Shown: positions 826 to 62,000 of the stretch, one piece after another
How positions within the stretch are numbered: position 1 is the first letter of the stretch
How the letters are laid out: each line of letters opens with the position of its first letter
Assembly (NCBI GenBank): GCA_963514005.1
Contig: OY740783.1
Location: forward strand, 119,846,001-119,910,000
Origin: Raja brachyura
Taxonomy: Eukaryota
Direction: 5' to 3'
Length of the DNA: 64,000 nt
The notes under the pieces: generated by a model
What the model saw: the letters and a program-made list of their open reading frames with translations, nothing else
Told to the model about the DNA's origin: nothing
The model's database searches: none
Translations under genes and position numbers: made by a program

Positions 826-1341
826 TGACCAGAGCTTAGCGTCCGACTCTGCCACTGATGAGAACAGTCACAGAAAATGCTGACTAACCGGTCTATTGTA
901 CACTTTTTGCACTAACACTCCAATTATTCTCATTCCTTCTTCTTCTCCTTGCCTATGGCATGCACAGCCTAAAGTTGAACTGAGTAAGCCTTTAGTTGCC
1001 AGATGCAACTAAATTTAAAGTGGCACTTTCTTCCCAATAACCCTCTCTGGCTAAACCTCATCCCTTCATCACCTCCAGTTTAAATTCCAGTTGGAATATT
1101 TTGGAGGACCAAGTAACCAAGAAGGACAGCTTGTTCTGTTTAATCTTTTAAAAAAAAAAGACTTCCGGTTGGCGCCATGGTGTGAGTGGAGTCGCGCCAT
1201 TACAGCTCCACTAAAAATTGTATAAAAAACGGGGGTCTAGGGGTCAGTCAACCGTACTCACCGCGGGAGAACGACTGGGAACGGCTCCGGTAGCGTTTAA
1301 AAGGTCCGTGACGTCATCAGGCGCGCGACTTTTTCAAGAAA

Positions 1342-2427
1342 ATGATGTCTCGCTCCCCCCCCGGAAAAAAACCTGGAAAAAGGGAAATAGGCCCGACTGG
1401 TGCCCTGGGCTCGAGTCTGGCTGCTTCCCAAGAAGAGATTTCACAGAGGAAAGCTGATCTGGAGGACCTCAAAGTTAATATCCTAGGTGAGATGAAGAAA
1501 TTACTTAAAGATAATAAGAAGGATTATAAAGAGGATATTAAAAATTTAAGGGCTGATATTCTAGTGTTTCATGAAAGAATTAAAGAAGATTTAAAAAATG
1601 AAGTTATAGAAACGGTAAAAATTATGATGAACGAGTGGAAAGAAAAGGCTGATGTTGAGTTACAAAAACAAATGGTGGAGATAAGAGACGCAGCTGCTGG
1701 TATGGAAAGAATGCTGGATGATAAGATTGATCCTATTATAATTACGCTCGACCAACAAAAAGAGACAATTAAAGAGCTAACGGAGATGGCTGCATTAAAC
1801 ACCAAGGAGAGAGAGAAACTCCACTCCGAGAACAAACGTCTATCAGAATTATTACGCAAAATAAATGAGAAATGTATCGATCTGGAGGGACGTCAACGGC
1901 GTAAGAATTTGCGTATAGTTGGTTTGAGCGAGGGTCGCGAGGGAAATCAAGACCCTCGAAAATTTGCTGCAAAACTACTGAAGGATATTTTGAATCTGGA
2001 TCAAGAACCCCTGTTGGGTCGTGCACACAGGGCATTAAGGCGGGCTCCCAGGAGGGATGCACCCCCAAGACAAATGATTGTAAAGGTGGTTTACGATCAT
2101 GCTTTTGAAGAAATGATGAAGATAATAATACGCAAGAAAAATTTTAAGTATGAAGGAGATAATATCAGTATCTTCAGAGATTATCCGGCGGAAGTGGCCA
2201 AGAGAAGATCCTTATTCACAGAAACAAGAGGTGTTCTGAGGAATCTGAAGGATACGAAGGATCTGAGATATGGCTTGATGTACCCAGCAACATTAAGAGT
2301 AACCTACAACAACAAAGAGTTCCGTTTCGTGAAGCATACTGTAGCACTGGAATTCGCCCGAAAAATACAGAATGAAACAGAAGAGGAAGAAGAACAAGTG
2401 GATCAAGACCAAGAAGATGATGGCTGA
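1342..2427 (+). CDS. L1 ORF1p, 361 aa (coiled coil + RRM/CTD, Transposase_22-like), intact
   Basis: Heptad-rich N-terminal half; motifs LEGRQRRKNLRIVGLSEG, RAHR, IFRDY, YPATLRV. Confidence 0.92.
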   Translation: MMSRSPPGKKPGKREIGPTGALGSSLAASQEEISQRKADLEDLKVNILGEMKKLLKDNKKDYKEDIKNLRADILVFHERIKEDLKNEVIETVKIMMNEWKEKADVELQKQMVEIRDAAAGMERMLDDKIDPIIITLDQQKETIKELTEMAALNTKEREKLHSENKRLSELLRKINEKCIDLEGRQRRKNLRIVGLSEGREGNQDPRKFAAKLLKDILNLDQEPLLGRAHRALRRAPRRDAPPRQMIVKVVYDHAFEEMMKIIIRKKNFKYEGDNISIFRDYPAEVAKRRSLFTETRGVLRNLKDTKDLRYGLMYPATLRVTYNNKEFRFVKHTVALEFARKIQNETEEEEEQVDQDQEDDG

Positions 2428-3068
2428 ACTTTTATGACCCATCCGCGGTTATGAATCATTATGGAGAAGGAGGATGAATATTGGACATGGACTTAAATTT
2501 TGGTTTAAAGAGAGATGGATAGATTACTGTGTTATCTACCCATATAAAATGGCAATTATTCACCTAACATAGTATTATCTACCCCCCCCAACATAGTATT
2601 ACTAATTAGAATAGTAATTATAATAGTCACTAGTAATATGAATTATTACTAAGTATACAAATTTAGTACCCTACCCCAAAATATATAGCATTTAAGATTG
2701 GAGCTGGAATTATTAACATCTTTTTTTTTTTACGGAAGTCAGTAGATTAGTAGCCACGGTAGTGTGGCTTGCACTAACACACACTACACTCTATATAGGT
2801 GTAGTTATTTTTTTTTCTGAGCACTTTACTAACACCTTTCAACTCACTTTCACTCACACTTTTTATTATTTTAGGTATGTTAGATATTTGATTTTATATT
2901 ATACAGTATATGAAATTATTTATGATTGGTATTATATAGTCAGTTCAAAGAGACGTGTATATGAAATAGAAAGACGTACACTAATTTTCGTCAACCCAAG
3001 GTCTGGTTACAATGTTGAGTTGTACGGGCCGGGACGGTTATTCCAATATAAACCACCTTAATAGTAAA

Positions 3069-6000
3069 ATGCAAGATACTAATGGGAAGATTGGGGGTAA
3101 TGGAATCACCTTCTGTAGTTGGAATGTTAAGGGAGTTAATGAGCCAATTAAAAGAGGTAAGGTGTTAGCTCAATTAAACAGATTGAAGTCTGACGTCTCT
3201 TTTCTTCAAGAGACCCACCTTAAAAAAGATGCTCGACACAGACTAACAGCTAAATGGATTTCGAAAGTGTATCACTCCTCATTTATACATAAATCTAGAG
3301 GGGTTGCAATAATCATTCGTAAAGGTATACCTTTTAAATTAAGTTCTATAATAGAGGATACAGAAGGTCGGTATGTAATAATTACAGGGGAATTATATTC
3401 TAAAAAAGTAACTCTAATGAATATATATGCCCCTAACTTTGATAACCCATTATTTTTTAAGAAAATATTTAATAATATCCCTATAGCTGCAGAACATAAC
3501 TTAATAATTGGAGGAGATTTTAATTGTACTTTGGATAATTATTTAGATAGATCGTCAACAAAAAGTAAATCTATTTCTAAGTCAAGCATACTTATAAATT
3601 CCTTTATTAGTACAGCAAACGTTAAGGACATCTGGAGAATAGATAATCCAATAGGACGAGAATATTCATTTTTCTCACCTGTATTCGGAACTTACTCGAG
3701 GATAGACTATTTTTTAATAGATTCAAAATTACTTCCATTTACATATGATTCAAAATATCATAATATTATTATTTCAGATCACGCTCCATTAACTTTTAAG
3801 ATAAAATTAAAAGATATAATTATAAAATCTAATAATTGGAGGTTTAATCCCGAAATATTAAAGGATAAGGCTTGTTATGATTATCTGGTAAAACAGATTA
3901 AATTATTCTTTGAAACTAATGACAAACCTGAAGTTTCACCATCATTACTTTGGGATACATTTAAAGCATTTATGCGTGGAGCTATAATATCGGCACAAGC
4001 ATACTTTAATAAAGAAAATAGAAAGACGGAACAAAACTTGGAAAAAGAGATAAAACAACTAGATATGGAGAATACAAAACAGCCCTCTAAATTGTTAAGT
4101 AATAAAATTGCAATATTAAAATACAAACTAAATAAAATATATTCCAATCAAGTAATTAAACTTTATCAACAAACTAAACAAGTGCACTTTGAATTTGGAG
4201 ATAAACCGCAAAAATTGTTGGCTCGACAACTTAGAAAGCGAGAGGACGAAAAAATGATACATAGAATTAGATCTGAGAATGGCAATATATCGACCTTACC
4301 AAAAGATATCAATGATATATTTTTACAATATTATCAAAGTCTTTATTCATCAAAAATAACAGGACAAATGGATGAAATGGATACATTTCTACAAAAATGT
4401 AATATTAACAGCTTAGATCAGGGAGGTAGAGACTTGTTGAATGCGGATATATCAATAAAAGATATTGAGGAGTCAATCGGATAATTAAATAATGGAAAAG
4501 CAGCGGGCCCGGATGGCCTGAGTACAGAATTTTATAAGAAATTTCAAGATCTGATCTCCCCAAGATTACATGCAGTGTATAAATATACATATGAACAAGG
4601 AAAATTGCCGGAATCTCTAAATGAATCTACAATTACACTAATTCCTAAGGTTGACAAGGACTTGGAAGACCCAGGATCATATAGAGCAATTGCTCTTTTA
4701 AATACAGATCAAAAAATTTTAGCTAAAGTTTTATCACGAAGATTAAGTTTGGTGATTACTAAAATAATACACCATGATCAAACAGGTTTTATCCCAAAGC
4801 GTTACTCATCTTATAATTTGAGACGATTATTTAATATCATATATTCAAAAAGAGTTGGGGATAGGGATTTAGCTGTTATGTCCTTAGATGCAGAAAAAGC
4901 ATTCGATCAGGTTGAATGGCCATATTTATTTAGAATAATGGAGAAATTCCAATTGGGGGATAGATTTTGTAAATGGATAAGAATTCTATATTCGAATCCC
5001 ACTGCAAGAATATTAACTAACCAAATATTGTCAGCTAAATTTAAGCTTCATAGGGGTTGTAGACAAGGATGTCCACTGTCGCCTTTGTTATTCGCTATGG
5101 TGATAGAGCCTTTAGCTGAAAGGATTAGATCCGAACCAGAAATATATGGATATAATACTGATACTACAACTAATAAAATATCTTTATATGCAGATGATGT
5201 ATTAATTTATATTACAAAACCAGAGATCAGTATACCCAAGCTATTTAATGTTATAACTAAATTTGGCAGATTTTCGGGATATAGAATTAACTGGAATAAA
5301 AGTGAGATTATGCCTATAACCGGAATAAGATCAAATATATTGCAACAATATCCACTAAAAATAGTTACGGATAAATTTAAATATTTAGGTATTAATGTAT
5401 CTAAATCCTATAACTCATTAATTAAATCTAATTATCCCCTATTATTAGATAAACTTAGAAAAAATATTTTATACTGGAAAACACTTCCTATATCTATGAT
5501 TGGTAGAATAAATGCTATAAAAATGATCTTTTTACCACAACTGCTATATTTGTTTCAAGCTATTCCCTTCTATCTCCCAAAGAGTTTTTAAAAAAAAATA
5601 GATAACATTGTCAATAGTTTTATTTGGGATTATAAAAATCATAGAATAAGTAAAAAACATTTATGTAAATCAAAAATAAATGGAGGATTAGCACTTCCAA
5701 ATTTTTTGTACTATTTTTGGGCAGTCCAGATTAAGAATATGAATTTTTGGTGGGTAAATTTGGATCACGAACCAACGTGGTTAAAGATGGAAAAGGAAGA
5801 TTGTTTACCTTTTAATGTAAGTTCAATTCTTTTTGCGCCAAGAGAAATACAAAATAAAATTTATAGGAACAACCCTATAATTCATAGCAATAGACGTATT
5901 TGGAAACAAATAGTCAAGACTTTATGTTTGGATAATTTGTCACTTAAACTACCAATTATGAATAACCCTTTATTTAAACCCTCTATGTTAGATAGGGGGT

Positions 6001-6857
6001 TTAGACAATGGGAGGATTTAGGTATTTATAGGATTGAACATCTGTATAGAAAGGGAAAATTTCTTTTATTTCATGAGTTACAAGAAATTTATGGGTTACC
6101 ACCACATAATTTGTTTAGGTATCTACAAATTAGAGATTATATTAAGTCTAACACACAAGATTATAAAATTAAAGAACCAGGATTATTAGATGAAGTATTT
6201 AATAAACATCCAAATTCAGAAAAATTTATAGCTTATATTTATAATCTTATTTTGGATAGGGAGAATCCAACAACAGAAATATACCGTCAAGCATGGGAAA
6301 ATGAAATTGGTTTATCTATAACAAAAGATTCTTGGGAAGAAAGTTTACAACGCATACATCGCTGTTCATTAAACGCGAGGCATACATTGATACAATTTAA
6401 AGTTTTATATAGGTTACATTATTCAAAAACCAAATTAAATAGAATTTTTCCTAATGTCTCTCCTATTTGTGATAAATGTCAGAATTTAGAGGCTAATTTA
6501 ATACATAGTTTTGTAACGTGTTCAAAACTTAGTTATTATTGGACAGAAATCTTTAGAGTTATATCTGAAGTTCTTAGAGTTAAACTGGATCCAGAACCAA
6601 AGTTAATAATATTAGGAATTCCGGATTCACAATGCGTATTAACAGTAAATCAAAGAACTTTCTTAGATTACTGTTTGATAATAGGGAAAAAAATAATATT
6701 GAAATTTTGGAAGGGAACATTAACCCCCATAATTAAAATGTGGACAGCAGAGATGTTGGAGACTTGGTATTTGGAAAGAATCAGATTTGTCCTAATGGAC
6801 AAATGTGAAATCTTTGAACAAATATGGTCTCCATATATACAATATTTGAAGGGCTAG
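3069..6857 (+). pseudogene. L1 ORF2p (AP endonuclease + reverse transcriptase + C-terminal Cys domain), 1262 codons, two in-frame TAA stops
   Basis: Track ORFs 3012, 4575 and 5706 share one frame. Motifs SWNVKG, LQETH, GGDFN, SRIDY, SDHAP, GKAAGPDG, LDAEKAFD, RQGCPLSP, YADD, CDKC..H..VTC. Stops at 4482-4484 and 5589-5591 only. Confidence 0.95.
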
Positions 6858-12300: not shown

Positions 12301-13240
12301 AAAGAAAGAACTGCAGATGCTGGAAAATCGAAGGTAGACAAAAGTGCTGGAGAAACTCTGCAGGTGCAGCAGCATCTATGGAGCGATGGAAACAGGCAAC
12401 GTTTCGGGCTGAAACCCTTCTTCAGATTGATGTAGGGTGGGGTGGGGGAGAAGAGAGGAGAAAGGACGAGGAGGGGCCCGAGGGCTGAGGGAGAGCTGAG
12501 AAGGGGAGAAGACAGCAAGGACTACCCGAAATTGGAGGTCAATGTTTATGCCGCTAGGGTGCAAACTGCCCAAGCGGAATACGAGGTGCTGCTCCTCCAA
12601 TTTCCGGCGGTGCTCAATCTGGCCATGGAGGAGGCCCAGGACAGAAAGGTCGGATTCTGAATGGGAGGGGGAATTGAAGTGCTGAGCCACCGGGAGATCA
12701 GGTAGGTTAATGCGGACGGAGCAGAGGTGTTCTGCGAAACAATCGCCAAGCCTATGCTTGGTCTCACCGATGTAGATCAGCTGACACCTAGAGCAGCGGA
12801 TGCAATAGATGAGGTTGGAGGAGATGCAGGTGAACGTCTGTCGCACCTGGAACAACTGATTAGGTCCTTGAATGGAGTCGAGGGGGAAGGTAAAGTGACA
12901 AGTGTAGCATTTCTTTCGGTTGCAAGGGAAAGTGCCAGGGGAGGGAAGAATTGACCAGAGAGTTACGGAGGGAGCGTTCTTTGCGGAAAGCAGACAGGGG
13001 AGGAGATGGGAAGATGTGGTGAGTGGTGTGGTATGTGACGGCTAGTGGGGTGAAAGGTGAGGACTAGGTGGACTCTGCCCTTATTACGAGTGGGGGGGGG
13101 GGGGGGGATGGGGAAAGTGAGCAGTGTTACGGGGTATTGAAGAGAGCCTCATCTACAGTAGGGGAAGGGAACATCCGTTCCCTGAAGAATGAGGACATTT
13201 CCAATGCCCTGGTGTGGAACACCTCATCCTGGGAGCAGAT
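12300..13240 (-). mobile_element. Penelope-like element (Neptune-type) 3' part: GIY-YIG endonuclease plus pLTR tail
   Basis: ORF 12376..12855 contains TCISSNLIYCIRCSRCQLIYIGETKHRLGDCFAEH...VAQHFN, a PLE GIY-YIG with a CxxC insert. Confidence 0.88.
12397..12426 (-). ncRNA. Minimal hammerhead-ribozyme-like core in the PLE pLTR
   Basis: Minus strand reads CUGAAGA-agggtttcagccc-GAAAC-GUU, directly 3' of the GIY-YIG ORF. Confidence 0.55.
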
Positions 13241-14548: not shown

Positions 14549-14804
14549 AAGTACAAGGGCTGTAGGGGAGGAGAGCGCACACACTGAGGGAGGGGAGGAA
14601 CACCGCAGGCCTGTAGTCCGGTCCCGGGCTCACCCCGACCCCTCAGGCCTCCGGCCACGCCGACTCACCCGAAACCATGCCCGCGTCCGGCCCGCTTCTC
14701 CGCTCCGGGCTCTCCAGAGGCCGGCTCTTAGCTGACTGCCCGCTCCCACCATGTGCGCTCCACGGCGGCCATTCCCGCTGAGCTCGACCGCCCGCTCCGC
14801 CGAC

Positions 14805-15212
14805 CGCTGGCGGCTGCGGCAACGACGGCCTCCCACCGGCGGCGGCGCTGTAGCTGGGTGTCTTCTGCTATCAAAACGGCCCAATGTACCGCCAGCGGCG
14901 CTGCTGACTGCGGCATCGCGGCCTCCCACCGGCAGCGGTGCTGTAGCTGGGTGTCTCCTGCTATCAAAACGGCCCAATGTACCGCCACCGGCGCTGCTGA
15001 CTGCGGCATCGCGGCCTCCCACCGGTGGCGGCGCTGCTGACTGCGGCAACGACGGCCTCCAACCGGCGGCGGCGCTGTAGCTGGGTGTCTCCTGCTATCA
15101 AAACGGCCCAATGTACCGCCAGCGGCGCTGCTGACTGCGGCATCGCGGCCTCCCACCGGTGGCGGCGCTGCTGACTGCGGCATCGACGACCTCCCACCGG
15201 CAGCGGCGTTGC
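14805..15212. repeat. GC-rich compound minisatellite (93-nt and ~40-nt units)
   Basis: gctgtagctgggtgtctcctgctatcaaaacggcccaatgtaccgcc occurs 3 times (CCAAT at 14881, 14974, 15108), interleaved with ggcctcccaccgg...gctgctgactgcggc units. Confidence 0.9.
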
Positions 15213-15289
15213 GACTGGATGTCCGCTGCTCTACCGTCTCCGCGGCCTACGTCACGAAGCGTCGGTCTCCACTTCCGTTTCCCCCCTGT

Positions 15290-15397
15290 ACACGCGCGCG
15301 CACACACGCACGCGTTAACGGACGGACAGCAGCAGCAGCGGCGGTGGTGGTGGCGACGGCAGCTGTGGCTGAGGGGAGTCGGGCTCAGGACAGCGAG
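15290..15397 (+). other. HAUS3: Putative non-coding exon 1 shared by HAUS3 and POLN (start approximate)
   Basis: Consensus donor GAG|GTAAGC at 15397/15398 inside the CpG island. Mammalian HAUS3 and POLN are known to share a first exon. Confidence 0.7.
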
Positions 15398-15625
15398 GTA
15401 AGCTTCACATCAACCGCTGGAAGCCCGCACGAAATAAATTGAGGGAGGCGGGGAAATCCCGTCCAATTGGGTGGGTTTGGTCGCTGGTGGGGTTCGTCCA
15501 GCGGAGTCCGCTGACGGAGGCCGGGTCGAGCTGAGCTGAGCCGCGCCGCAGTGAGGGGGAGGGGAGAGTCGGCCCAACGGTCACTGTGGGAACCCAGCGC
15601 GCGGCCCCGCACTTCTTCCCGCCGG

Positions 15626-17745
15626 TTAATGGGAGCGCACCGCCCTGCCTGGCTGATGCATCGGCCAATGGGAGCGCCACGGCCGCCCTTGTCTCAGCCA
15701 ATGGCGGCGCCTGTCTGTTCGCAGCCGGTCGCTCAGCCAATGGGAGCGCCCTTCTGTGCGCGCTCGATGGCTCCGCCAATGGGAGTGCCTCGATTGCCGG
15801 CGTCTCAGCCAATGGGAGCGCCCTTCGGTGCGCGCTCAGCGGCTCAGCCAATGGGAGCACCTCGATTGTCGATGTCCCAGCCAATGGGAGCGCCTCACCG
15901 CGCAGGGCCAGCGTCTCAGCCACTGGGAGCGCCATTCGGTGCGCGCTCGACGGCTCAGCCAATGGGAGCGGCTCGATTGTCGATGTCTCAGCCAATGGGA
16001 GCGGCCGTCAGTGCGCGCTCGTTGGCTCGGCCAATGGGAGCGCATCAACTGCCGGGGTCTCGGCCATTGAAAGCGTCTGTCGGTGCACGATTGTTGTCTC
16101 ACCCAATGGAGGGGCCTCGATTGCCGGCGTCTCAACCAATGGCGGCGCCGGGCGGCGATGCACCGGGGCCGATGAGGGATCCGCTCTCCACCCGCCTCAC
16201 GGCCCGGGCCATGCGGGCGCCCTATCCCACCCCGCTGGCGCCCCACCTCCCACAGCCCGCGGACCCTTCCCGCCCGATGGGCGCACACCTCTCGGGACCT
16301 TGGTCTAGACGTGTGCTCCTCCCGACGCCGGATCCAATGGGTGCGGCCCCTCGACCAATGGGCGCGCCTGTCCTGAAATCTCGGGTAGTGCATGTGCCCC
16401 TCTCGCCACCTCGGCCAATGGGCGCGCCTGCCTCGACACCTCGGGTAGTGCATGTGCCCCTCTCGCCACCTGCGATACCTCGGCCAATAGGCTCACTTCA
16501 CCCGCCACCTCGGCGAATGGGTTCGCCAGTCATGACATCTAGGTCAAGGGATGCGCTTCTCCCGACGCCGGATCCAACATGTGCGCCCCACCATCGGTCT
16601 ACGGCTCCTCGAACAATGGGTGCGCATGTCCCAACACCGCTACCAATGGGTACACCTCTCCCGCCATCTGCGGTGCCTCGGTCAATGGGACAGTTTCTCC
16701 CCACATCTCAGTCAATGAATACACCCCTCTTGACATATACGGCACAGCGACAAATGGGAATACCCCACCCATCGTCTGCGATGCCTCGGCCAATGGGAGC
16801 GTCCCTTCTGCCATCTGCAGCTTCTCAGCAAATGCGGGTGCCCCATACACGATCTGCAGCTCCTGTGCCATTGGGTGCGTCTTTCCCTCAATCTGTGGCT
16901 GCTCGGCCAATGGGAACGCCGCTCCGTTCATCTGCGGCATCTTGGCCAATGGGCTTGCCTCCTCTACCATCTGCATTCCCTCAGCCAATGGGAGCACCTC
17001 GCTCAGCTCCTCAGGCTCCACAGCCAATGGGAACCCCTCACTCAGCTTCTCCAGCTCCACAGCCAATGGGAGCATCTCGCTCAGCTCCACGGCCACTGGG
17101 AATGCCTCGCTCGGCTCCATGGCCAATAGGAGCAACGCACCTGGCTCCTCGGTCTATTGTAGAACCTCACCCATCTTCCCCAACATCTCGGCGAATGGGC
17201 TTAGTGCTGCCGGGGTCTGAGCTAATAGGAATGCCTCATCTGGCGTCTCGCTCTGCATTGCCATTGTCCCAGCCAATTGGAATGCCTCACCCTCGGCTAC
17301 CGTTATCTCTGGCATTGCGACTCAGGGGCTATTAGATACAAAATGTTACTTGGCTAATCTGTACAGTGGTAATTTGCTGCCTTGTGGGAATTTAGTGTCA
17401 TGCAGCACAAAACCAAGCATTCGACTCAACTCGCCCTTGCTGGCCAAGATGCTCCATCCAAGCTCGTCCCATTTGCCTGCTCCTGGCCCATATCACTGTA
17501 AACCATTCCTGTCCAAGTATTTTAAATGTTGTTATTGTACCTGCCTCAACTACCTCTTCTGTCGTGGTGGGAATAGATGGTAAAGCAATGCCTGGACAGA
17601 GGAGCGAATGGGTCAATGAGGGCACCTCTCTCTGCATGGTCGATGTTTCGACCCATGGACGCAGTACCTAACCCAGCTGGCATCTCAGCCAATGGGGACG
17701 CCTTACCCCACCCACCCTGCCGGCATCCTGGCCAATGGCAGCGTC
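15626..17745 (+). repeat. Degenerate 33/39-nt tandem array with core (c/t)c(a/g)gCCAATgggagc; ~27 exact CCAAT, all on +
   Basis: Cores at 15665, 15698, 15737, 15776, 15809, 15848, 15881, 15959, 15992, 16031, 16103, 16136 ... 16907, 16946, 16985, 17024, 17063 ... 17689, 17732. Confidence 0.92.
15629..17335 (+). CDS. Unannotated-looking 568-aa Pro/Met/Ser-rich '(S/R)(Q/R)PMG' repeat ORF in intron 1 (open from 15551)
   Basis: No stop over 1785 nt. All measured unit spacings are multiples of 3. Core varies synonymously or conservatively (PMG/PLG/PIG). No recognisable homologue. Confidence 0.45.
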   Translation: MGAHRPAWLMHRPMGAPRPPLSQPMAAPVCSQPVAQPMGAPFCARSMAPPMGVPRLPASQPMGAPFGARSAAQPMGAPRLSMSQPMGAPHRAGPASQPLGAPFGARSTAQPMGAARLSMSQPMGAAVSARSLARPMGAHQLPGSRPLKASVGARLLSHPMEGPRLPASQPMAAPGGDAPGPMRDPLSTRLTARAMRAPYPTPLAPHLPQPADPSRPMGAHLSGPWSRRVLLPTPDPMGAAPRPMGAPVLKSRVVHVPLSPPRPMGAPASTPRVVHVPLSPPAIPRPIGSLHPPPRRMGSPVMTSRSRDALLPTPDPTCAPHHRSTAPRTMGAHVPTPLPMGTPLPPSAVPRSMGQFLPTSQSMNTPLLTYTAQRQMGIPHPSSAMPRPMGASLLPSAASQQMRVPHTRSAAPVPLGASFPQSVAARPMGTPLRSSAASWPMGLPPLPSAFPQPMGAPRSAPQAPQPMGTPHSASPAPQPMGASRSAPRPLGMPRSAPWPIGATHLAPRSIVEPHPSSPTSRRMGLVLPGSELIGMPHLASRSALPLSQPIGMPHPRLPLSLALRLRGY

Positions 17746-18853
17746 ATTTGTCATGGCATGTATTTTATTTCATTAACTTTCAGTCTTTAACTGAATCTCT
17801 GTTCAGCTCAATTATTGTCTACGACAATGTTCATTATTCATGTTTTTAGAAAGACTGGTTATTTTCGACCCAAAGTTACTTTTGTTTGAGTTTGTATATT
17901 TTAAATGAACATTGTCTCCGATGTAACACTCTTAATTACACTCAATTGATGGTGGTGCTGAAGAATCTTTGTGAAGAGAATATGTTAATGGGGGAGGGTG
18001 GAAGTAGATGTCTAAAGAGATAAAATGCCGTTAAAAACAATTTATTTTCAAGGGTATTATACCTTGGAGAATCGCATTCTGAAGCTTACTGAACATGTTA
18101 AATTTGTACATGTTATGTCATAATTCATTGTTTTCTGTTAGAAGTGCTTTATTTTCAATGTTGATCATTATTGCTGCACTTGTACAAATTCCCTTTAAGC
18201 AGTGATTTGCAGTGGAATTTAAATTTATTAAATTTGACAAATAATTATTTTTGTATAACAATGTATGTTAAATAGTGTTCATATTGACTGTCAATACCAT
18301 TTCTGTATTTTTGTCCCTATTACAAATTGAATTGGATTTTTTCTTTCCCAGTAAAAAAAAATTAAGTATACTTAAATTCAGAGTTAAAAGTACTCTCTAA
18401 AGCATATACAGTACATAGTTTTTAAGAGTTTCCAGAGGGGTGAATATTGACTGATGAGATATTGTTTATGTTTGCGATCCTGTTAGCTGAATCATTATCA
18501 ACTAGAGTTTTAAATGCTGAGGAAAATGGGTGTTTTGTATCATTAGGAGAAATATTGGTTGGTAAGCACGTGACAAAAGCTTTTCACGTGACAATAATAA
18601 TAAACTAAATTAAACTACCTGCTAACATGTACTCCATCACCTTTAATCTCAAATATCACTGTTGACTACAGATTTATTATACTTTTGATCACCAGGGCTG
18701 TTTTTGTTTCTAGAAATGCTGCCATGCTTCTGTAAATTAAGTTAATGTATTGTTTCTGCTTGAGATTAAAACAGATATCCAGCATACCACTTTGTTGCAG
18801 TTGGATATTTTAAATCTTTCAGACCCCAGAAACGTTATCATGTACTCACCACA

Positions 18854-19768
18854 ATGAACGGGAGAATATTTGTAGAGACATTAAAGAAAATTGGTTATCC
18901 TAATGCCAATCAATTAAATGGGGAGCACTTTGATTGGTGGTTTGACATTGGCGATGAAAGAATATTTGTAGAATGGTTCTGCAACACTGTAAATGAACAG
19001 AATGTACTATCAGAAGAAGAGTTGAATGGATTGAAAAGACTTGAAGTTGAAGATTGCCTGTTGGATCAGAAAGACTTGGATCAGGTCTTGGAGACACGAC
19101 CTAAAGATGTGAAATCAAAATATGGCAACCTGGAAGAGATGACAGTTGACGAACTGGAAAGTGAAGTTGAAGTGCTACAGTTGACTCGAAATCTTAAAAT
19201 CCAGCGACGGAATAAGCAACAACTGATGGTTACTAAAATACACCATCTGCCGATGCAGCTACGGGATCAGGAGGATGAATGTGCCCGATTATTGAGAGAA
19301 ATACATCAGCAACTAGTGGTTGAAAATGCCAAATTAAATCGCACGCTGTTAAAGATTCACGAGGAAGTTCAGGAGCTAAGTTCTGCGTATTCGAGTACTG
19401 AGGCAGAAAAGAAACCAGAGCAAGAGATTGTCTTCATGTCACAACTTGCATTGGACCGCTATCTGCAACAAGAGGAACAATGCACCTCAGCGCTCACTGA
19501 ATACACCAAGAAACAGTTTTTTCAGGGCATAGTGGAGTTGGTTGCAAGCTCTGATGTAGAAAAATTTCAGCTGGTGCACTTAACTTCTCAACCTGTACAG
19601 GGACAGTGCAACGAGGTACTCGAAGAATATAAACAACAAATGGCAAGAATCCAAGCAGCATACAGCAGTGGGCAACGCCAGTTAATTTTAGCAAAAGCGA
19701 AGGAACAAAGTACAGAGGCTAGACTTCAATACTTGGAACAGATAATTTCATCAATGCGAACAAGAAAG
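18854..19768 (+). CDS. HAUS3: HAUS augmin-like complex subunit 3, coding exon 1 (exon starts 18823)
   Basis: MNGRIFVETLKKIGYPNANQLNGEHFDWWF matches the HAUS3 N-terminus; also YTKKQFFQGI. Acceptor tctttcag|, donor AAG|GTAGGT, 915 nt, phase 0. Confidence 0.97.
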
Positions 19769-22140
19769 GTAGGTAGAACCCGTGCTTTTATTCCGAGTTT
19801 ATTCCGCGGGTCCTAGACTCTCCCACTAGTTGAAAAATCCTTTCTACATCTACTCTATCCAGCCCTTTCACTATTCGAGCACTATTCGGTCCCCCTCATC
19901 CTTCTAAGTGCTTATATGTTAACCCACTCATTCCTGGGATCATTCTCGTAAACCTCTGGTCCGGCCCATTCATCCTCCGATACGGGGCCCAAATTTTCTC
20001 CCAATACTCCAAATGCAGTCTGACCAGCGTCTTATTAAAGTCTCAGCATTACATCCCAGTTTTTATATTCTATAGTCCTCCGAAATAAATGCTAGCATCG
20101 CATTTGCCTTCCTTACTACCGATTCGACTTGCAAATAACTTTTGGGGAATCCTGCACCAGCACTCCCAAGTCCCTCTGTCCCTGCGATTTCTGTATTCCC
20201 TCCCCATTTAGAAAATAATCTACACCTTTATTCCTACTATGAAAATACATGACTCCACAATTTTCCATGCTGTATTCCATCTGCCACCTCTCTGCCCACT
20301 CTCCCATCCTGCAGAGTCCCTATTTTTTTCAATACTACCTGTTTTTTCCTCCCTATCTGCGTATCATCTGCCAACGGCCGCTAAACCTTTTAATCCCCTC
20401 CTTTAAATCCTTGATATACAACGTGAAGAGTAGTGGCCCAAGTACTGACCCCTGCTGAACATCTGTAATCAATTTTTATCTGGAAGCTTTAGTGTAGACG
20501 TAGAGTACAAATGGAGCAAGCTAAATCAGATTGAAAATATTCGTACAGAGAAAACAATTAAAGCTGTATTCCTGGCCTGAAACGTTGCCTATGTATTGCT
20601 TCCACAGATGCTGCTTGACCTGCTGACTTTCTCCAGCACTTTGTATCTTGCTAAATTTTCAGGTTGATGTTTTAACAATTTTTTAAATTAAATTCTGTTG
20701 TTCATAAGTGATAGGAGCAGAATTAGGCCATTTGGTCCATCATGTTTACTCCGCCATTCAATCACCGCTGATCTATCTTTCCCTCTTAACCCCATTCACC
20801 TATCTTCTCGCTATAATCCCCAACACCCAGAGGATACCTATTGTATCAGAGGTTATCTGCTTCTCAATCCATTCTTCTTGCAAACGGTGTGCACAGCCTT
20901 AAGTTGTGGAACAACTTGTTCTATAGACAATAGGAGCAGGAGTAGGCCATTTGGTCCTTCGAGCCAGCACCGCCATTCAATGTGATCATGGCTGATCATC
21001 CCCAATCAGTACCCGTTCCTGCCTTCTTCCCATATCCCCTGACTCCGCTATATTTAAGAGCCCTATCTAGCTCTCTCTTGAAAGCATGCAGAGAACCTGC
21101 CTCCACTGCCCTCTGAGGCAGAGAATTCCACAGACTCACCACTCTCTGTGAGAAAAGTGTTTCCTCGTCTCCGTTCTAAATGGCTTACTCCTTATTCTTA
21201 AACTGTGTCCCCTGGTTCTGGACTCCTGCCTCTAGTGTGTCCAAGCCGTTAACAATCTTATGTTTCACCACCTTCTGTTTGATCTTATTTGATTGTGCAC
21301 GTCGGGTTGATTGCATTAGTCAAACTGGGCAGACCACGTGAAGGTTGCAATTTCCCACCCCTCTCAATCTATTGATGCTCTTGATTTCAGGCATCTCCCA
21401 CTTTCACTTCTGTTAAAGCCTCAGTTCCATTCTTGCCAAAGCACCTTCAACACTTTTTTTAAAGTTATATTTTGGTTAATGGCATCATTGACTAGGACCT
21501 CATTCACTGTTCATCTCTAATTATCCATGAGAAGGTGGTGGTGAGCAGCTGTTTGAACCACTGGTGTTGCTTGTAAAGATCATTTCACGGTGCTGTTGAT
21601 CAGTGATTTTCAGGATGAATAAAGCATTAATAAAGGACCGGCAATCTACTTCCAACTACAATTTGAATCTACTACCCTTGACCCCATTGGTAGGTCAAAG
21701 GTTGAGATGCTGTTGGAGTTGCCTAAGTGGGCAAATCTGTGCATTTTATAGGTAGCATATTCAACGGGTGGTAGAGTGAGTGAATATTTATGGTGTTTGA
21801 TGGACTGCTAGTCAACTGAGTGGCTTTCTTCTAGATGGTGTTGAGTGTCTTGAGAATTGTGTTGATGCTGCAAGTGGAGAGTATTCCTCCAGATTTCTGA
21901 TGTGCCTTGTAGTTAGTCGAAAGATTTTTGGCTGTCAGGGGTGAGTTATCTACTGCAAAAACACCCCTGTTCTGATCTATCCAGCTGAAGGACCAGTTAA
22001 GTGGAAATCCTGTTGAATCTTCCATGGCTCATCTTGGAGCAGAAAGAAAATTAAGGGAAGACTTGTGGAAGGTGCGCAGAATTGAGAAGTTTTGACTGAG
22101 CAAGTAAGAGCAAACTGATTTAGGGATGTCAATCCTCATA

Positions 22141-24112: not shown

Positions 24113-24555
24113 CTGACTGATGATGCAAATGGTATAAAAGCCAAGAAGAGTAGTTTGGCCAAAGAACTAACTTCAATAAATGTCCAAATAGAACAACTGA
24201 TTAACGAGGAGCTTCCTGATCTGATTGTTGAGAACGCACAACTCTTAAATATGCCAGTTGTGAAAGGTAATTTTGACCTGCAGATGTCTCGCCAAGATTA
24301 CTGCACCTCCAAGCAGGATGAAATTGCAAGTCAGCTGATCAAACAGAAAGCTCGATTTGAACTACTTCAACTCGCATATGAAATCGAACTGTGTAAACAT
24401 AGGGAAACCCATCGGCAGCTCGAGAATCTGGCCAAGAACCTTAATCAAAGCAGAGAAGACATTGTGAAGCGTTTGGAGATTATGTCTGATAAGTCTCTAT
24501 TGCCAAGTAATAAACAACAGACTTTAATTGATTCAAGTGATACCACTACTGCCAG
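24113..24555 (+). CDS. HAUS3: HAUS3 coding exon 2
   Basis: ENAQLLNMPVVKGNFDLQ..RQDY..KQKARFELLQLAYEIEL. Acceptor caacag|, donor AG|GTAGG, 443 nt, phase 0 to 2. Confidence 0.96.
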
Positions 24556-24789
24556 GTAGGAAGGTCAAACATTTTTGTGCTATTCTATGTCTAATCTGTA
24601 GCAACTGCAACGCAGAGATTGAGTATCAAAATGCCACCTTGACAAATTGTAAAAATGAGCAATATGACTGGCTATTCATAGCTTAGTAATGCAATGTCAA
24701 GAAACTTGTCGGTTGCCCACATTGTGCTCTGATAGATTTTAACCGTATCACTGGTTATTATTCATTGCCAATATTATGACTGAAAGGAA

Positions 24790-27075: not shown

Positions 27076-27874
27076 GATGTCCAGATGTTGGTATCTTGAG
27101 CAAAACACAAAGTGCTGGAGGAAGAAGAAGGGTCCCAACCAGATACATTATCCGCCATTCCCCCCTTCAGCACTTTGTATATTGTTTAGGCCATACCTGC
27201 AGGAGGTGGATATGCTGCATTTTAATTATAAGGAGAGACTGGATAGAGTTAATTTTGTCTCAAATTCAATTAAACCTCAACCAGAATGATTCTCTTATAA
27301 TAGAAAGGTATGAATCCTACAATTTTTTTAATATGTCACCAGTTTATTTTACACTGATGGGTTACTATTGAAATTCTACTTGATGGGATGTTCAAATTAT
27401 CGTGTTAATTTATGAATAGTATTGGAAAATTAACAGTTTTCTTTTTAATTGAGGCTTTTCTGTCATTCAGTGAGATAATTGGTGCACTGCAGTAAGCTAA
27501 ACATTCTTCACCCATCATTCATTTAAAACAGTTATTGAAAAACAAACTTTGATTTAGCCTTATCCATCATTGCACAACAAAAGTTAATCTTGTGTAATCC
27601 TCTGCCAACCAAGTGTTATTTCCTTCATCCTGGCACTTTCATCAGAGTTTGATAGAATTTGTGTGACGTTACCAGGAAGCACCATTGTTTCCCTTCCAAT
27701 AATAAATTCCAGGCCATTGTTATTTCATGCAGTTTTTATTTCATGAGTTGGTGCATATGCTGGAGTTGTTCCTTGATTTTATGTATTATCTTGCTGAAAC
27801 GTAGCATGCAGTGTTGTTGAGTTATTTTCATCATGTCTAGTTGTAAATGTTTTTCCTTTCATTCTTTATTTCAG

Positions 27875-28100
27875 ACTTGCTGAGATTTTAGTGGGAGATG
27901 ATGAGCAGCAGCCGTTCAAAACATACAGTGGTCTAGAAGAGGGAGCCAAAAAGCTTCAGAAGGAAGTAGTTTGTTTAAAGGACCAGTTAAAAGCAACAAT
28001 GCACGATCAGTCTTTCCTGCGGTTAACACTAGAATCTGACATCGAGAAACTTCAGAGTGTTATGTATACTGGATCCAAGCAACTTTTACTTCACTCTGAG
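27875..28100 (+). CDS. HAUS3: HAUS3 coding exon 3
   Basis: (R)LAEILVGDDEQQPFKTYSGLEEGAKKL. Acceptor atttcag|, donor GAG|GTAATG, 226 nt, phase 2 to 0. Confidence 0.93.
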
Positions 28101-29586: not shown

Positions 29587-29820
29587 GAACTGTCTGAACC
29601 TCTTCAGAAATTGGAAAGTCAACTGCAGAGACTACCCCAAATCATTGGAAACATAGCTGATGATATCAAATCAAAAAATAAAATGTTGTCAAGCAACTCC
29701 ATTTGTAGAGGCGAGAGAAGTCTGTATGTCCATTTCTTTCAAGATCCTGATCAACTGAAGAAGATTGTGGAGGATTTTGAAAGGAAATTTCAGACTCGCA
29801 GCATCGGATTGGAGAGCTGA
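29587..29820 (+). CDS. HAUS3: HAUS3 last coding exon; spliced CDS 1818 nt = 605 aa
   Basis: ELSEPLQKLESQL...ERSLYVHFFQDPDQLKKIVEDFE. Acceptor ttgtag|, tandem stop TGATGA. Confidence 0.95.
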   Translation, partial: ELSEPLQKLESQLQRLPQIIGNIADDIKSKNKMLSSNSICRGERSLYVHFFQDPDQLKKIVEDFERKFQTRSIGLES

Positions 29821-57462: not shown

Positions 57463-59068
57463 CAGTGGCTTGCAAAAGTTTTCATACCCTTTGAACTTTT
57501 CCACATTTTGTCACACTACAACCACAAACATAAATGTATTTTATTCGGATTTTATGTGATAGATCAACACAAATTGGTGCATAATCGTGAAGTGGAAGTA
57601 AAATGATACATGGTTTTTAAATTTTTTTACAAATAAAAAACTGAAAAGTGTGGCGTGCAAAAGTATTCAGCCCCCTTTACTCTGATACCCCTAAATAAAA
57701 TCCAGTGCAACCAATTGTATTCAGAAGTCACCTAATTAGTAAATAGAGTCCACTTGTGTGTAATCTAATCTCAGTATAAATACAGCTGTTCTGTGAAGGC
57801 CTCAGAGGTTTGTTAGAGAACATTAGTGAACAAATAACATCATGAAGCCCAAGGAACACACCAGACAGGTCAGGGATAAAGTTGTGGAGAAGTTTAAAGC
57901 TGGGTTAGGTTATAAAAAAAATATCCCAAGCTTTGAACATCTCACGGAGCACTGTTCAATTCCATCATCCAAAAATGGAAAGAGTATGGCACAACTGCAA
58001 ACCTACCAAGACATGGCCGTCCACCTAAACTGACAGGCCGGGCAAGGAGAGCATTGATCAGAGAAGCAGCCAAGAGGCCCACTGGTAACTCTGGAGGAGC
58101 TGCAGAGATCCACAGCTCGGGTGGGAGAATCTGTCCACAGGACAACTATTAGTCGTGCACTCCACAAATCGGGCCTTTATGGAAGAGTGGCACGAAGAAT
58201 GCCGTTGTTGAAACAAAGCCATAAGAAGTCCCATTTGCAGTTTGCCACAAGCCATGTGGGGGACACAGCAAACATGTGGAGGAAGGTGCTCTGGTCTGAT
58301 GAGACCAAAATTGAAGTTTTTGGCCTAAATGCAAAACGCTATGTGTGGTGGAAAACTAACACTGCACATCACCCTGAACACACCACCCCCACTGTGAAAC
58401 ATGGTGGTGGCAGCATCATGCTGTGGGGATGCTTTTCTTCAGCAGGGACAGGGAAGCTGGTCAGAGTTGATGGGAAGATGGATGGAGCCAAATACAGGGC
58501 AATCTTGGAAGAAAACCTGTTAGAGTCTGCAAAAGACTTGAGACTGGGGCGGAGGTTCACCTTCCAGCAGGACAACGACCCTAAACATACAGCCAGAGCT
58601 ACAATGGAACGGTTTAGATCAAAGCATATTGATGTGTTAGAATGGCCCAGTCAGTCCAGACCTAATTGAGAATCTCTGGCAAGACTTGAAAATTGCTGTT
58701 CACAGACACTCTCCATCCAATCTGACTGAGCTTGAGCTATTTTGCAAAGAAGAATGGGCAAAAATTTCAGTCTCTAGATGTGCAAAGCTGGTAGAGACAT
58801 ACCCCAAAAGACTTGCCGCTGTAATTGCAGCGAAAGGTGGTTCTACAAAGTATTGACTCAGGGGGGCAGAATACTTTTGAATGCCACACTTTTCAGTTTT
58901 TTATTTGTAATAAAATTTGGAAACCATGTATCATTTTCCTTCCACTTCACAATTATGCACCACTTTGTGTTGGCCTATCACATAAAATCCCAATAAAATA
59001 CATTTACGTTTGTGGTTGTAACGTGACAAAATGTGGAAAAGAGGTATGAATACTTTTGCAAGGCACTG
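57463..59068 (+). mobile_element. Tc1-family DNA transposon, 1606 bp, long TIRs, nested in the DIRS
   Basis: TA|CAGTG...CACTG|TA ends and ~200-bp inverted repeats. Confidence 0.95.
57842..58856 (+). pseudogene. Tc1 transposase (DD34E type), frameshifted
   Basis: MKPKEH, GRPPKL, VLWSDETK, KHGGGSIMLWGCF, FQQDNDPKH, WPSQS(PDL..IENLW) spread across frames. Confidence 0.92.
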
Positions 59069-62000
59069 TAACAGAACTCAAAATCGTGTTGGCAAACGAA
59101 CCCGGCCTGGCAATTGGTTTATTATAAAAGGTCTGGAAAGTCCGCTCATTTGACCATCCTGCTGTCGCTAGGATGCGGTCCAGCGGAACCTCCATGAACC
59201 TTGCTGCTGATGTTGTTGCAGCCCTGGTGGAGTGAGATTTAAAAACATCAGTGTCCACTCCTGCGCAAGCCAACACGTGTCTTAACCACCTGGAGATGGT
59301 CTGCACTGATACCTTCTTATGTGTTTTTTTATGACTAATAAACATAGCCAGCTCAGTGCCTCTAAGGTTCTTTGTAGCCTTTATATATTGGTGAATATAT
59401 GTGACAACACACACTCAACGGTCCATCGGATATGCCAAAAATTCCAGCTTTAAACCAAATACACCCGGTCTGCTTTGCTTGATTAACTCATTTATATAAA
59501 TGTTATCTTGTTGGCAGACATAACCGTCCTGTCCAGCCGTAGTTTATGTAAAGACTGGACGCATTGCGCTGAAACCAGCGCCATGAACATTATTACCTTA
59601 TATATCAGCCGGACCAAAGATAAGGATGTAGCTGGAGCCCAACCGCGAAGCAGTATTAACACAATGTTAACGTCCCATACTTCTGTGTACCAGGGCCTGG
59701 GAGGATTTATGTTAAAGATACCCTTCATGAATTTGGATATCAAAGGGTGAAACCCAACAGAGTGGTGTCCCGATCCCAGCATCAAGTATGATGACAAGGC
59801 ACTTTTGGCAGAGTTGATGGCACAATAACTTAATCTTTTATCAAAAAACAACATTGAGAGAAACTCTCAGACATCAGTTATCCGTGCCGTATTATACGTT
59901 ATACTTGAATTTAAACAAAACACTTCCCATCTCTTGATGTAGGAAATGTACTGCTTCTTCATGCTATCTCACCAAGCTGCAGTGATCACGTCCATGGTTT
60001 GGTCGGATAATCCAAGCCCCAGAAAAGGTCTTCTTAAACTCTGCAAATCAATAAGTTGATTCTATCATGCAGAGGGTGAGATTCCCGAGACACGGGATGA
60101 ATAAGCAAATCTTTGCGTTTATTAATAACCATATAAGGTTCTATTATCATTCCCAACATCAGCGGGAACCATGGCTGTGTGGGCCAGTCAGGCACTACTA
60201 AAATGCGTGATTTTTAGCAAGTACCAGCTAATGAGGCAAAATGTAGGAAACGCATAAAAGATCATTCCTCCCCAGTGTAACGAGAATGCATCAATTGCTA
60301 CTGCCCTGGGTCTGGCTCCCATGCAACATATTTTGGCAACTGGTGATTAAGCCTAGATGCAAACAAATCAATATCCGGTGTTCCATACCGAGCAACAACG
60401 TCGTTAAACACTTTGTGATCTAACATCCATTCTGTGTTATCATTAAATTTATGTGACATCGTGTCTGCCACTGGGTTAAACCTACCTGGCAAATAGTTAG
60501 CTGAAATCCAAATCCTTTGTTCAATACACCAGCTCCAAATGAGGTTAGCCAAACTATCACAGGATACTGACTTGATTCCATCCAGCTAAATTTCAAATAT
60601 CTCAGGTGATCCCTGTGATTTGGAACTGAGTAATATGCATCTTTGAGATTGATGCATGCCATAAAGCACCCTTTGGAAATCATTTGTTTAAGCAGTAAAG
60701 AAGTTTTCCATTTTTAAATGTCCATACTGCACTGATGAGTTAAGTTGTGTTCAATCAAGGATGATCTGACATCCTCCATCTTTGTTTTGCCTAGAGAATA
60801 TATTGGAGATGAATTGATGATTTTCCTGACTTGATTTTTCAATTACCCCTTTTCTGTGTAATGCATGAATTTCTGCTTGTATATCCAAACCTTTTTGTTT
60901 GGAATGAATATCTGCCCGACCTGGTGTATGTTGTGTGGGTGGCAATGAATTAGGTAAAAACTCAATTTTGAACCCTTGTATACTGTGCAGTATAAACGGA
61001 TCTGAGGATATCCACCGCCATTCATGTAAAAACAAGTGCAATCTACCACCAACTTGTAACTGGTCCACAAACCCCATGTTCCGGAAAGAACCAGACGCAC
61101 CTACCTCCATGGTTACCAGTGGTCTGATAGCAGGCCCAACGGGCCCTAATACGGGTTCTGAAAAAGACCTCTGCCCAGGAAGATCAAGTTTTGAGCTGCC
61201 ACTAGCTTCAGCAAACCGCTTATTGCTAATGGAGGTATAGGGGTGGTGTCGCCGAAACTGTGAAGCTTTGCTCATCATAGGTGCTTTGATCAGCCCGACA
61301 GCTTTGGCTTCATCATCCAGGTCTTTCACCTGCTTGGGCAGGTCTTCCCCGAACAGAAGATTGGGCGGCTGGACATTACTGGATTTACCCAGACCCGCAA
61401 ACTTTGGGTTTAACGCAGGCTTGATGGTGCTCTTTCGGAAGCAGTTGATTTCGAAATGTGCATTGCACATTAACGCCAGGGCATCCTGCTGGCCGTCTGA
61501 TAGTGGCCCGCCATCTACAGTTCTGGAAAAAGCCGTGATGCCTGAAGCCAGTAATTTTAAAATCCGTTGGAGTTTCATTTCTTGGGCCTTGATGCCACCT
61601 CCAATGTAACCCCAAATGGAGCTGTTGACTGCCGGCACTTTTAAGGATGCACGATTCGCAGGCGTGTGGTATTTAGCATCCGTTTCAACCATAACTTGTT
61701 CTTGTAACTGATGGGATGTGAGATTGTTGATACTAGAAGCCAGATCTTCTTGAAGAGGCTCCCCTGTCTGTGAAGGTATAGCAAACCTCGATGCCAGGGC
61801 AGGCAACACCTGTGTGTGAGTCTCACGCATCTCATGTATTCCAGTATGTCCTTCTGACATACCCCCTCATCAGAGTGGGAGGCACTAAGCAGCCCTGGAC
61901 CAGGTGCTGTCGCAGGCATGAAGGGAGACCTGCTATGATATGTCTCCGTATCACGGAGCATATTATGATGGAGCATCCTCTCCATGAGGTGCTCCATTTG

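Follow-up and report, generated by a model that had tools for sequence, protein, structure and literature searches.

As described in excerpts of PMC4591814, HAUS3 and POLN in zebrafish, mouse and human have in common a first exon that is non-coding and located within a CpG island, splicing from the donor of this exon sets the output, and the HAUS3 coding exon lies downstream. The locus studied here, located in a window of 64,000 nucleotides from the skate Raja brachyura (contig OY740783.1, positions 119,846,001 to 119,910,000; all coordinates below are those of this window), resembles that arrangement in each of these respects. However, two products are described for that locus, whereas the skate has a third long frame in a retained intron 1. 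The text of that article is without the words 'CCAAT', 'intron 1' and 'shark'. What comes closest to a GC-rich, fast-evolving additional frame within another protein's transcription unit is the XL exon of GNAS, with its products XLalphas and ALEX, according to the accessible part of PMC1186735. There, however, the frames overlap and the two proteins interact, whereas in the skate array the second frames contain at least 3 stops, the HAUS3 coding sequence is not overlapped, and the product is a predicted one.

As for the repeat units themselves, the U3 repeats of LTR12/ERV9 likewise consist of ~40-bp tandem units with recurrent CCAAT, but they have 5-17 units of about 41 nt, belong to a dispersed LTR family, and have demonstrated NF-Y binding (PMC11853044, in excerpt). 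In contrast, the skate array has ~40 units of triplet lengths only, shows single-copy depth in a DNA run from a relative (X14, see below), and carries predicted NF-Y sites. Similarly, the ABO minisatellite occupies a single locus, has CCAAT in its units and varies in copy number; however, it has four units of 43 bp, a non-triplet length, and lies 3.7-3.9 kb upstream (PMC7187371, in the part available). Its role is disputed within that same review. Since the units of LTR12 are ~41 bp and those of ABO 43 bp long, NF-Y needs no triplet rule. In the portion of PMC3287175 at hand, G2/M promoters of the cyclin B2 type have CCAAT boxes ~33 bp apart, a distance that recurs in 5 of 24 cases in the skate, but these boxes are three in number, perfectly conserved, and lie together with a CHR immediately upstream of their gene. 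The skate array, on the other hand, has 25 decaying intronic boxes, and none of seven CHR-like hexamers occurs in 14600-15630. According to an excerpt of PMC3730095, the CCAAT boxes of promoters are found between -40 and -100.

Location and structure of the array

The frame 18770-19816 matched the HAUS-augmin3 family (Pfam PF14932) with an E-value of 1.6e-57, and the protein read from the ATG at 18854 is 96% identical to one protein cluster, 89% to a protein of Rhinoraja longicauda and 77% to HAUS3 of Mobula hypostoma, which identifies the window as skate DNA. An out-of-frame ATG is present in the spliced HAUS3 leader at 18840, 14 bases ahead of this start. For comparison we used four of 22 sequencing runs, namely, X8, X14, X16 and X20, one each from four other organisms, which we refer to as the relatives. 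RNA contigs of X20 join 15397 to 18765 by a GT..AG joint, and those of X16 show the same joint with variant letters; the repeat array is therefore located inside HAUS3 intron 1 (Table 1). Although the earlier note had placed the array just downstream of a transcription start, it instead begins ~230 and ends ~1900 bases beyond the donor of exon 1 (15397). The left end of exon 1 in Table 1 is where an X16 contig begins, and is not a mapped transcription start. RNA contigs of X8, X16 and X20 depart from the window sequence at 19768, and tblastn located later HAUS3 exons in the window near 24170-24556, 27873-28073 and 29608-29817.

We did not find a POLN coding exon in the window, where two HAUS3-POLN fusion protein queries matched HAUS3 exons only. 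Mammalian annotation includes read-through forms at the HAUS3/POLN locus, in which HAUS3 is joined to POLN domains in a rhinoceros protein of 1288 aa (P0109) and a human protein of 935 aa (P0118). The sharing of a first exon by these two genes in vertebrates has no known reason.

Table 1. Positions of the HAUS3 features, the repeat blocks and the open frame in the window.
Feature	Positions	Strand	Remarks
HAUS3 exon 1, non-coding, 3' part	15272..15397	+	GT..AG joint in RNA contigs X20/X16
HAUS3 intron 1	15398..18764	+	3367 bases; spliced out in some RNA contigs, covered by others
5' repeat block	15622..16170	+	15 units, 39 and 33 bp; CCAAT kept in 12/15
Gln-Pro-Met-Gly open frame	15629..17335	+	ATG to TAG, 568 aa
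Middle block, degenerate units	16270..16638	+	Spacings 60, 21, 60, 69, 30, 99, 30
3' repeat block	16639..17346	+	Nine 39-bp steps from 16708 on, followed by 30-bp units
Repeat remnants past the stop	17609..17767	+	Four decayed cores, spacings 39, 37, 43, frame lost
HAUS3 first coding exon	18765..19768	+	Pfam, tblastn; ATG 18854, donor after 19768

The array consists of ~40 decayed, co-oriented units of 21, 30, 33 or 39 bp. Our hand list comprises 40 cores; one more core at 17308, the 41st, and a match at 16807 that is internal to a unit are not on this list but are included in the blind scan described in the next section. CCAAT occurs 25 times on the plus strand and twice on the minus strand of 15626-17280, and is carried by 25 of the 40 tandem units, the other 15 being without it. 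The earlier note's count of ~25 co-oriented boxes is thus borne out, but the full consensus YRRCCAATSRG, which it had ascribed to all of them, is found in only 16 of the 25. The best-kept columns of the unit do match the NF-Y consensus, as the note had stated, and within the gap-free 39-bp block conservation is higher for the core than for the linker columns (7.6 vs 6.2 of 9). In the whole window, YRRCCAATSRG occurs 17 times versus 1.44 times in shuffled sequences, an excess that arises because one unit was amplified. CpG observed/expected is ~1.0 in the 5' block and declines to 0.55-0.66 in the 3' block.

The 24 CCAAT-to-CCAAT distances include 33 bp in five cases and 39 bp, the most frequent value, in eight, while the remainder range from 21 to 198 bp; distances of 31, 32 and 42 bp do not occur, and 11 of the 24 differ by at most 1.5 bp from a helical multiple. 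Accordingly, the G2/M-like spacing of 33 bp proposed by the earlier note is present at the cyclin B2 value, but only in these five cases, with 39 bp being commoner. The spacing series that the note gave for the 5' part (33,39,39,33,39,33,39,39,33,39,33,39,33) holds exactly when counted from 15661, provided that the CCAAT-less cores at 15916 and 16060 are included. Its four consecutive 39-bp spacings in the 3' block hold for 16903-17059, and become nine from 16708 when degenerate cores are included.

A high-copy repeat fragment at ~17420-17560, recognized by a depth peak in the DNA run X14, separates the array from the remnants past the stop, and judging by these remnants, the array formerly extended further downstream. 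On the array itself, the X14 depth of 8-15 compares with 9.9 on exon 2 and amounts to single-copy depth at 85% likeness, older copies below that level escaping the count; at this likeness, the depth speaks against a dispersed repeat or LTR family. An array of RNA hairpins formed by the near-palindromic core was also rejected (z 0.29 and -1.20).

A second GC-rich minisatellite is located just 5' of exon 1, at 14814-15217, with periods of 93, 41 and 134 and an identity of 91-94%; it contains three CCAAT in weak context (14881, 14974 and 15108), and its periods break frame. Elsewhere in the window, the stretch 1312-6857 holds an element that by eye is nearly intact and that we take to belong to a LINE-like family, with one frame of 371 aa and another that two stops divide into pieces of 499, 368 and 421 aa. 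The frames at 12376-13041, 58058-58669 and 60751-61866 are presumably transposon fragments (GIY-YIG-like, Tc1-like and retroelement-like), and Pfam returned nothing for 12376-13041 or 60751-61866.

The open frame and RNA over intron 1

The frame in which the core reads Gln-Pro-Met-Gly is free of stops from 15515 to 17332, that is, over 606 codons, while the other five frames have 3, 15, 8, 23 and 15 stops over the same stretch. The 40 cores of the hand list are separated by 39 spacings, each of which is a multiple of 3. In a blind scan between the ATG at 15629 and the TAG at 17335, a single phase was found in 42 of 42 cores, versus 1 of 9 in the flanks, where some of the matches are due to chance. 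When 2, 3, 4 or 5 mismatches were allowed, the in-phase counts were 19/19, 29/29, 39/39 and 42/42, and those in the flanks 0/1, 0/1, 1/4 and 1/9. These results extend the earlier note to ~40 units rather than 25, with triplet spacings throughout and 606 codons without a stop.

About 8 stops are expected in the whole frame and none is seen. When the differences among the 32 gap-free units were re-dealt among like bases, 4.0 stops were expected versus 0 seen (P 0.011); 4.2 were expected versus 0 seen in the remaining 669 bases, ~190 of which have limits set by the ends of the frame itself (P 0.009). The same simulation fits the other frames, bar a non-significant stop deficit in two of them (P 0.16 and 0.07). 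All these P values are indicative, since the units have a common ancestry and six frames were examined.

The ATG at 15629 is the first after exon 1 and the first after 15250, our ATG inventory having none from 15250 to 15628, and the Gln-Pro-Met-Gly frame accounts for 42 of the 49 ATGs between 15250 and 17335. An in-frame ATG is present in 31 of the 40 cores, all 40 have Met, Leu or Ile at the Met position, and Gly codons vary silently in 11 of 33. The pN/pS ratio between units is 0.74-0.92 in this frame and equally low, 0.70-0.85, in some stop-laden frames; this measure does not single out the Gln-Pro-Met-Gly frame. We also took up a Ser-Ala-Asn-Gly frame on the plus strand and a Pro-Leu-Ala-Glu frame on the minus strand, as their third positions fall on a variable column, and compared both with Pfam. 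Both were rejected, the former having 3 stops and 2 ATGs and the latter 8 stops, with no start and a pN/pS of 0.9-1.2 in either.

The predicted product is composed of Pro (21%), Ala (14%), Ser (11%), Arg (9%) and Met (7%), among other residues, has a pI of about 12, and contains 20 PMG and 26 P[MLI]G motifs. A single-sequence structure model had a pLDDT of 38 and no confident fold, which is consistent with disorder. The putative product is of low complexity, and is predicted to be disordered.

RNA contigs cover the array. Their RNA status follows from the spliced joint in X16 and X20 and from the departure at the exon-2 donor in X8, X16 and X20, whereas the DNA run X14, by contrast, continues past that donor. 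In X8, X16 and X20, all 30 bins are covered by contigs, with an array depth of 0.26-0.51 of exon-2 depth; the depth of the last bin is that of exon cover alone, so that the first 32 bases of intron 2 have zero depth. Relative to exon 2, the 15397/18765 spliced joint amounts to 0.23 in X16 and 0.44 in X20, with none among the X8 joints listed; one X8 contig spans from 17528 into exon 2. The contig depth, which reveals neither strand, start, level nor single molecules, is consistent with frequent retention of intron 1, and internal starts, antisense RNA and nuclear detention are possible as well.

According to the exon-junction rule, an RNA with such an early stop is an expected substrate of nonsense-mediated decay. 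Since the stop of the frame lies 2.4 kb ahead of the next exon junction, the intron-retaining RNA is expected to decay. On the minus strand, a strong donor-like GTGAGT follows right after an ATG at 14663-14680, and an X20 contig extends 2542 letters 5' of 15250; a divergent transcript from the same CpG island is therefore likely.

Comparison with the relatives and searches for homologues

The frame keeps its phase in this genome and in the four relatives. The length changes placed inside it (144, 39 at four places, 36, 18 and 9) are all multiples of 3 (8/8), versus 4 of 15 outside it (p 0.0013), the outside count resting on 12 of 50 rows (3/12 multiples of 3) plus the contigs that straddle the start. 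Unit-sized changes keep the frame for free, and several of the eight may be non-independent, the 36 being perhaps the same event as a 39; for the three changes of other than unit size, p is 0.043. By depth arithmetic, losses of 15, 13, 13 and 5 letters in the start-straddling contigs map to 15402-15553, 5' of the ATG. In X20, a net loss of 13 letters falls somewhere in 17226-17377, an interval with 110 of its 152 bases in the frame. If it lies in the frame, it is within the last 36 codons, the tail is shifted, and the p value for length changes becomes 0.009.

Among 40 of 316 rows, all 40 of which come from X8, we counted 20 cross-species substitutions in the frame, 14 of them non-synonymous and 6 silent. 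This proportion equals the neutral expectation (0.30 silent), the other frames are similar, and no stop was gained. The divergence of the array is 1.5% in X8 and 4.9-5.5% in X14, X16 and X20, and it proceeds faster than that of the AT-rich intron (2.9% in X16) and of exon 2 (2.2%).

A word-index search of a collection that includes annotated skate, ray and shark proteomes found no relative of the 568-aa product, and phmmer against 1.84 billion representatives returned four unrelated low-complexity matches (resilin-like and other repeat proteins). Pfam has no family for the product, and its recognition by the Atlas was low. A fusion of the array to HAUS3 was rejected, as none of the RNA joints listed links the array with exon 2 and the best 11 HAUS3 matches (600-605 aa), which by name or likeness come from cartilaginous fish, have no extension; a viral origin was rejected as well, the viral contigs being without a match. 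In metagenomes, 18 pattern matches were found, none of them alike by blastn at E 1e-3. Two metagenome contigs (L017:1-1510 and L010:1501-1630) contain unrelated arrays of 15 and 9 GCCAATGG, with spacings such as 23, 29, 31, 52 and 10 and many stops in all three same-strand frames. At the level of search results, the literature on HAUS3 with POLN, intron retention, upstream frames or skates held nothing on the array, and that on intron-encoded proline-rich proteins held nothing on this locus.

Possible explanations of the array

We propose, with a probability of about 0.5, that the array encodes an unannotated, proline-rich repeat protein whose frame has been selected to stay open, and which would be translated from transcripts that retain intron 1. 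In the mechanism that we infer, the exon-1 donor would act as a switch. Spliced to 18765, it would give rise to HAUS3; spliced further on, it would give rise to POLN, as in other vertebrates, no such joint having been found in the window; and left unspliced, it would let the scanning ribosome meet the array frame first. Leaky scanning would lead to nested N-terminal truncations in the same frame, because 31 of the 40 cores carry an in-frame ATG. Selection would likely keep the frame open and preserve the recurring Pro-aliphatic-Gly motif, with most amino-acid changes and whole-unit gains and losses being tolerated. The CCAAT boxes are likely a by-product, inherited from the founding unit. From its sequence, the CpG-rich 5' block is a plausible target of NF-Y, which may bind the boxes there without being the reason why the array persists. 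More tentatively, a promoter CCAAT box amplified ~40-fold might have become a gene of the skate lineage, its unit combining an NF-Y site, an in-frame start codon and Pro-Met-Gly, and retention of intron 1 making the HAUS3/POLN promoter a three-way switch with a third protein specific to that lineage; we consider this extended scenario speculative.

It is also possible, though in our view doubtful, that the frame is translated and that the same core is in addition kept as an NF-Y site in the promoter CpG island. All the evidence for the frame applies to such a dual code too, and the earlier note's remark that the box doubles as Pro-Met-Gly turned out to be a better lead than its regulatory platform. 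The comparison of the Pro third base that the note had suggested has a mixed outcome, although it provides the single result in favour of the dual code. At the silent third position of the core Pro codon, 38 of 40 units have A (CCA in 29 of 30 Pro codons), and this position requires 2 parsimony steps versus 12 for the third base of Gly (p 0.013), with 7-15 steps for the remaining third positions, as estimated from noisy 27-base windows of non-independent units. The better preservation of core than of linker columns, and of CCAAT in the block with a CpG ratio of ~1 (12 of 15 units), agree with it. However, 5 and 6 changes fall on the two C bases of CCAAT, 15 of the 40 units are boxless, and the A persists even in most units with a dead box. 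Moreover, in one case examined by hand, an extra unit of X20 retains Gln-Pro-Met-Gly intact while silent changes destroy its CCAAT, so that the peptide is kept and the box lost, and in X8 the CCAAT box at 17273 is broken.

We regard it as unlikely that the array is a neutral, or formerly coding, CpG-island minisatellite, whose frame would descend from a stop-free 39-bp unit and whose RNA would be incompletely spliced precursor. The neutral ratio of silent to replacement changes, the fast divergence and the absence of a homologue all fit this explanation, as do the second minisatellite in the same island and the fact that unit-sized length changes stay in frame anyway. On the other hand, stops are depleted in two separate parts of the frame, length changes of other than unit size (6, 9, 18 and 36) are in frame while both flanks are out of frame, the neighbouring array has periods of 41 and 134, and intron 2 is uncovered in the same RNA runs.

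A role as a translational trap, in which the upstream frame would capture ribosomes on intron-retaining RNA, block HAUS3 and trigger decay, the protein itself being irrelevant, appears improbable. It would be in line with the first ATG of the unspliced RNA, the concentration of 42 of 49 ATGs in one frame, the neutral-looking amino-acid changes and the stop far 5' of the next junction. However, a short upstream frame would suffice for this purpose and would have no reason to shun stops over 568 codons, and the abundance of intron-bearing contigs is unlike rapid decay, although contigs cannot measure level. Finally, a purely regulatory NF-Y platform that holds chromatin open or tunes HAUS3/POLN output, as the earlier note had proposed, is very unlikely and a weaker reading than the coding frame, since the 25 co-oriented CCAAT (16 with full consensus), the CpG-island setting, the enhancer precedent of the LTR12 and ABO repeats and the cyclin B2-like spacing of 33 bp leave the triplet rule, the absence of stops and the in-frame length changes unexplained, while 39 bp is the commonest spacing, 31, 32 and 42 bp are absent, the array lies 3' of exon 1, and the region 14600-15630 has no CHR-like hexamer.

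Motif scans would label arrays of this kind enhancers although the frame statistics indicate coding, which calls for caution. If the array is neutral, it is an ordinary decayed minisatellite. The overlap of CCAAT with Pro-Met codons in ~40 copies makes this a locus at which regulatory and coding selection can be separated, and a clean test of the two is offered since silent changes remove the box and a stop removes the protein. If a repeat protein is indeed encoded here, this third product from the retained intron 1 would make the HAUS3/POLN promoter a multi-way splice switch, and the skate array would clearly exemplify how a promoter-island minisatellite can give rise to a long protein.
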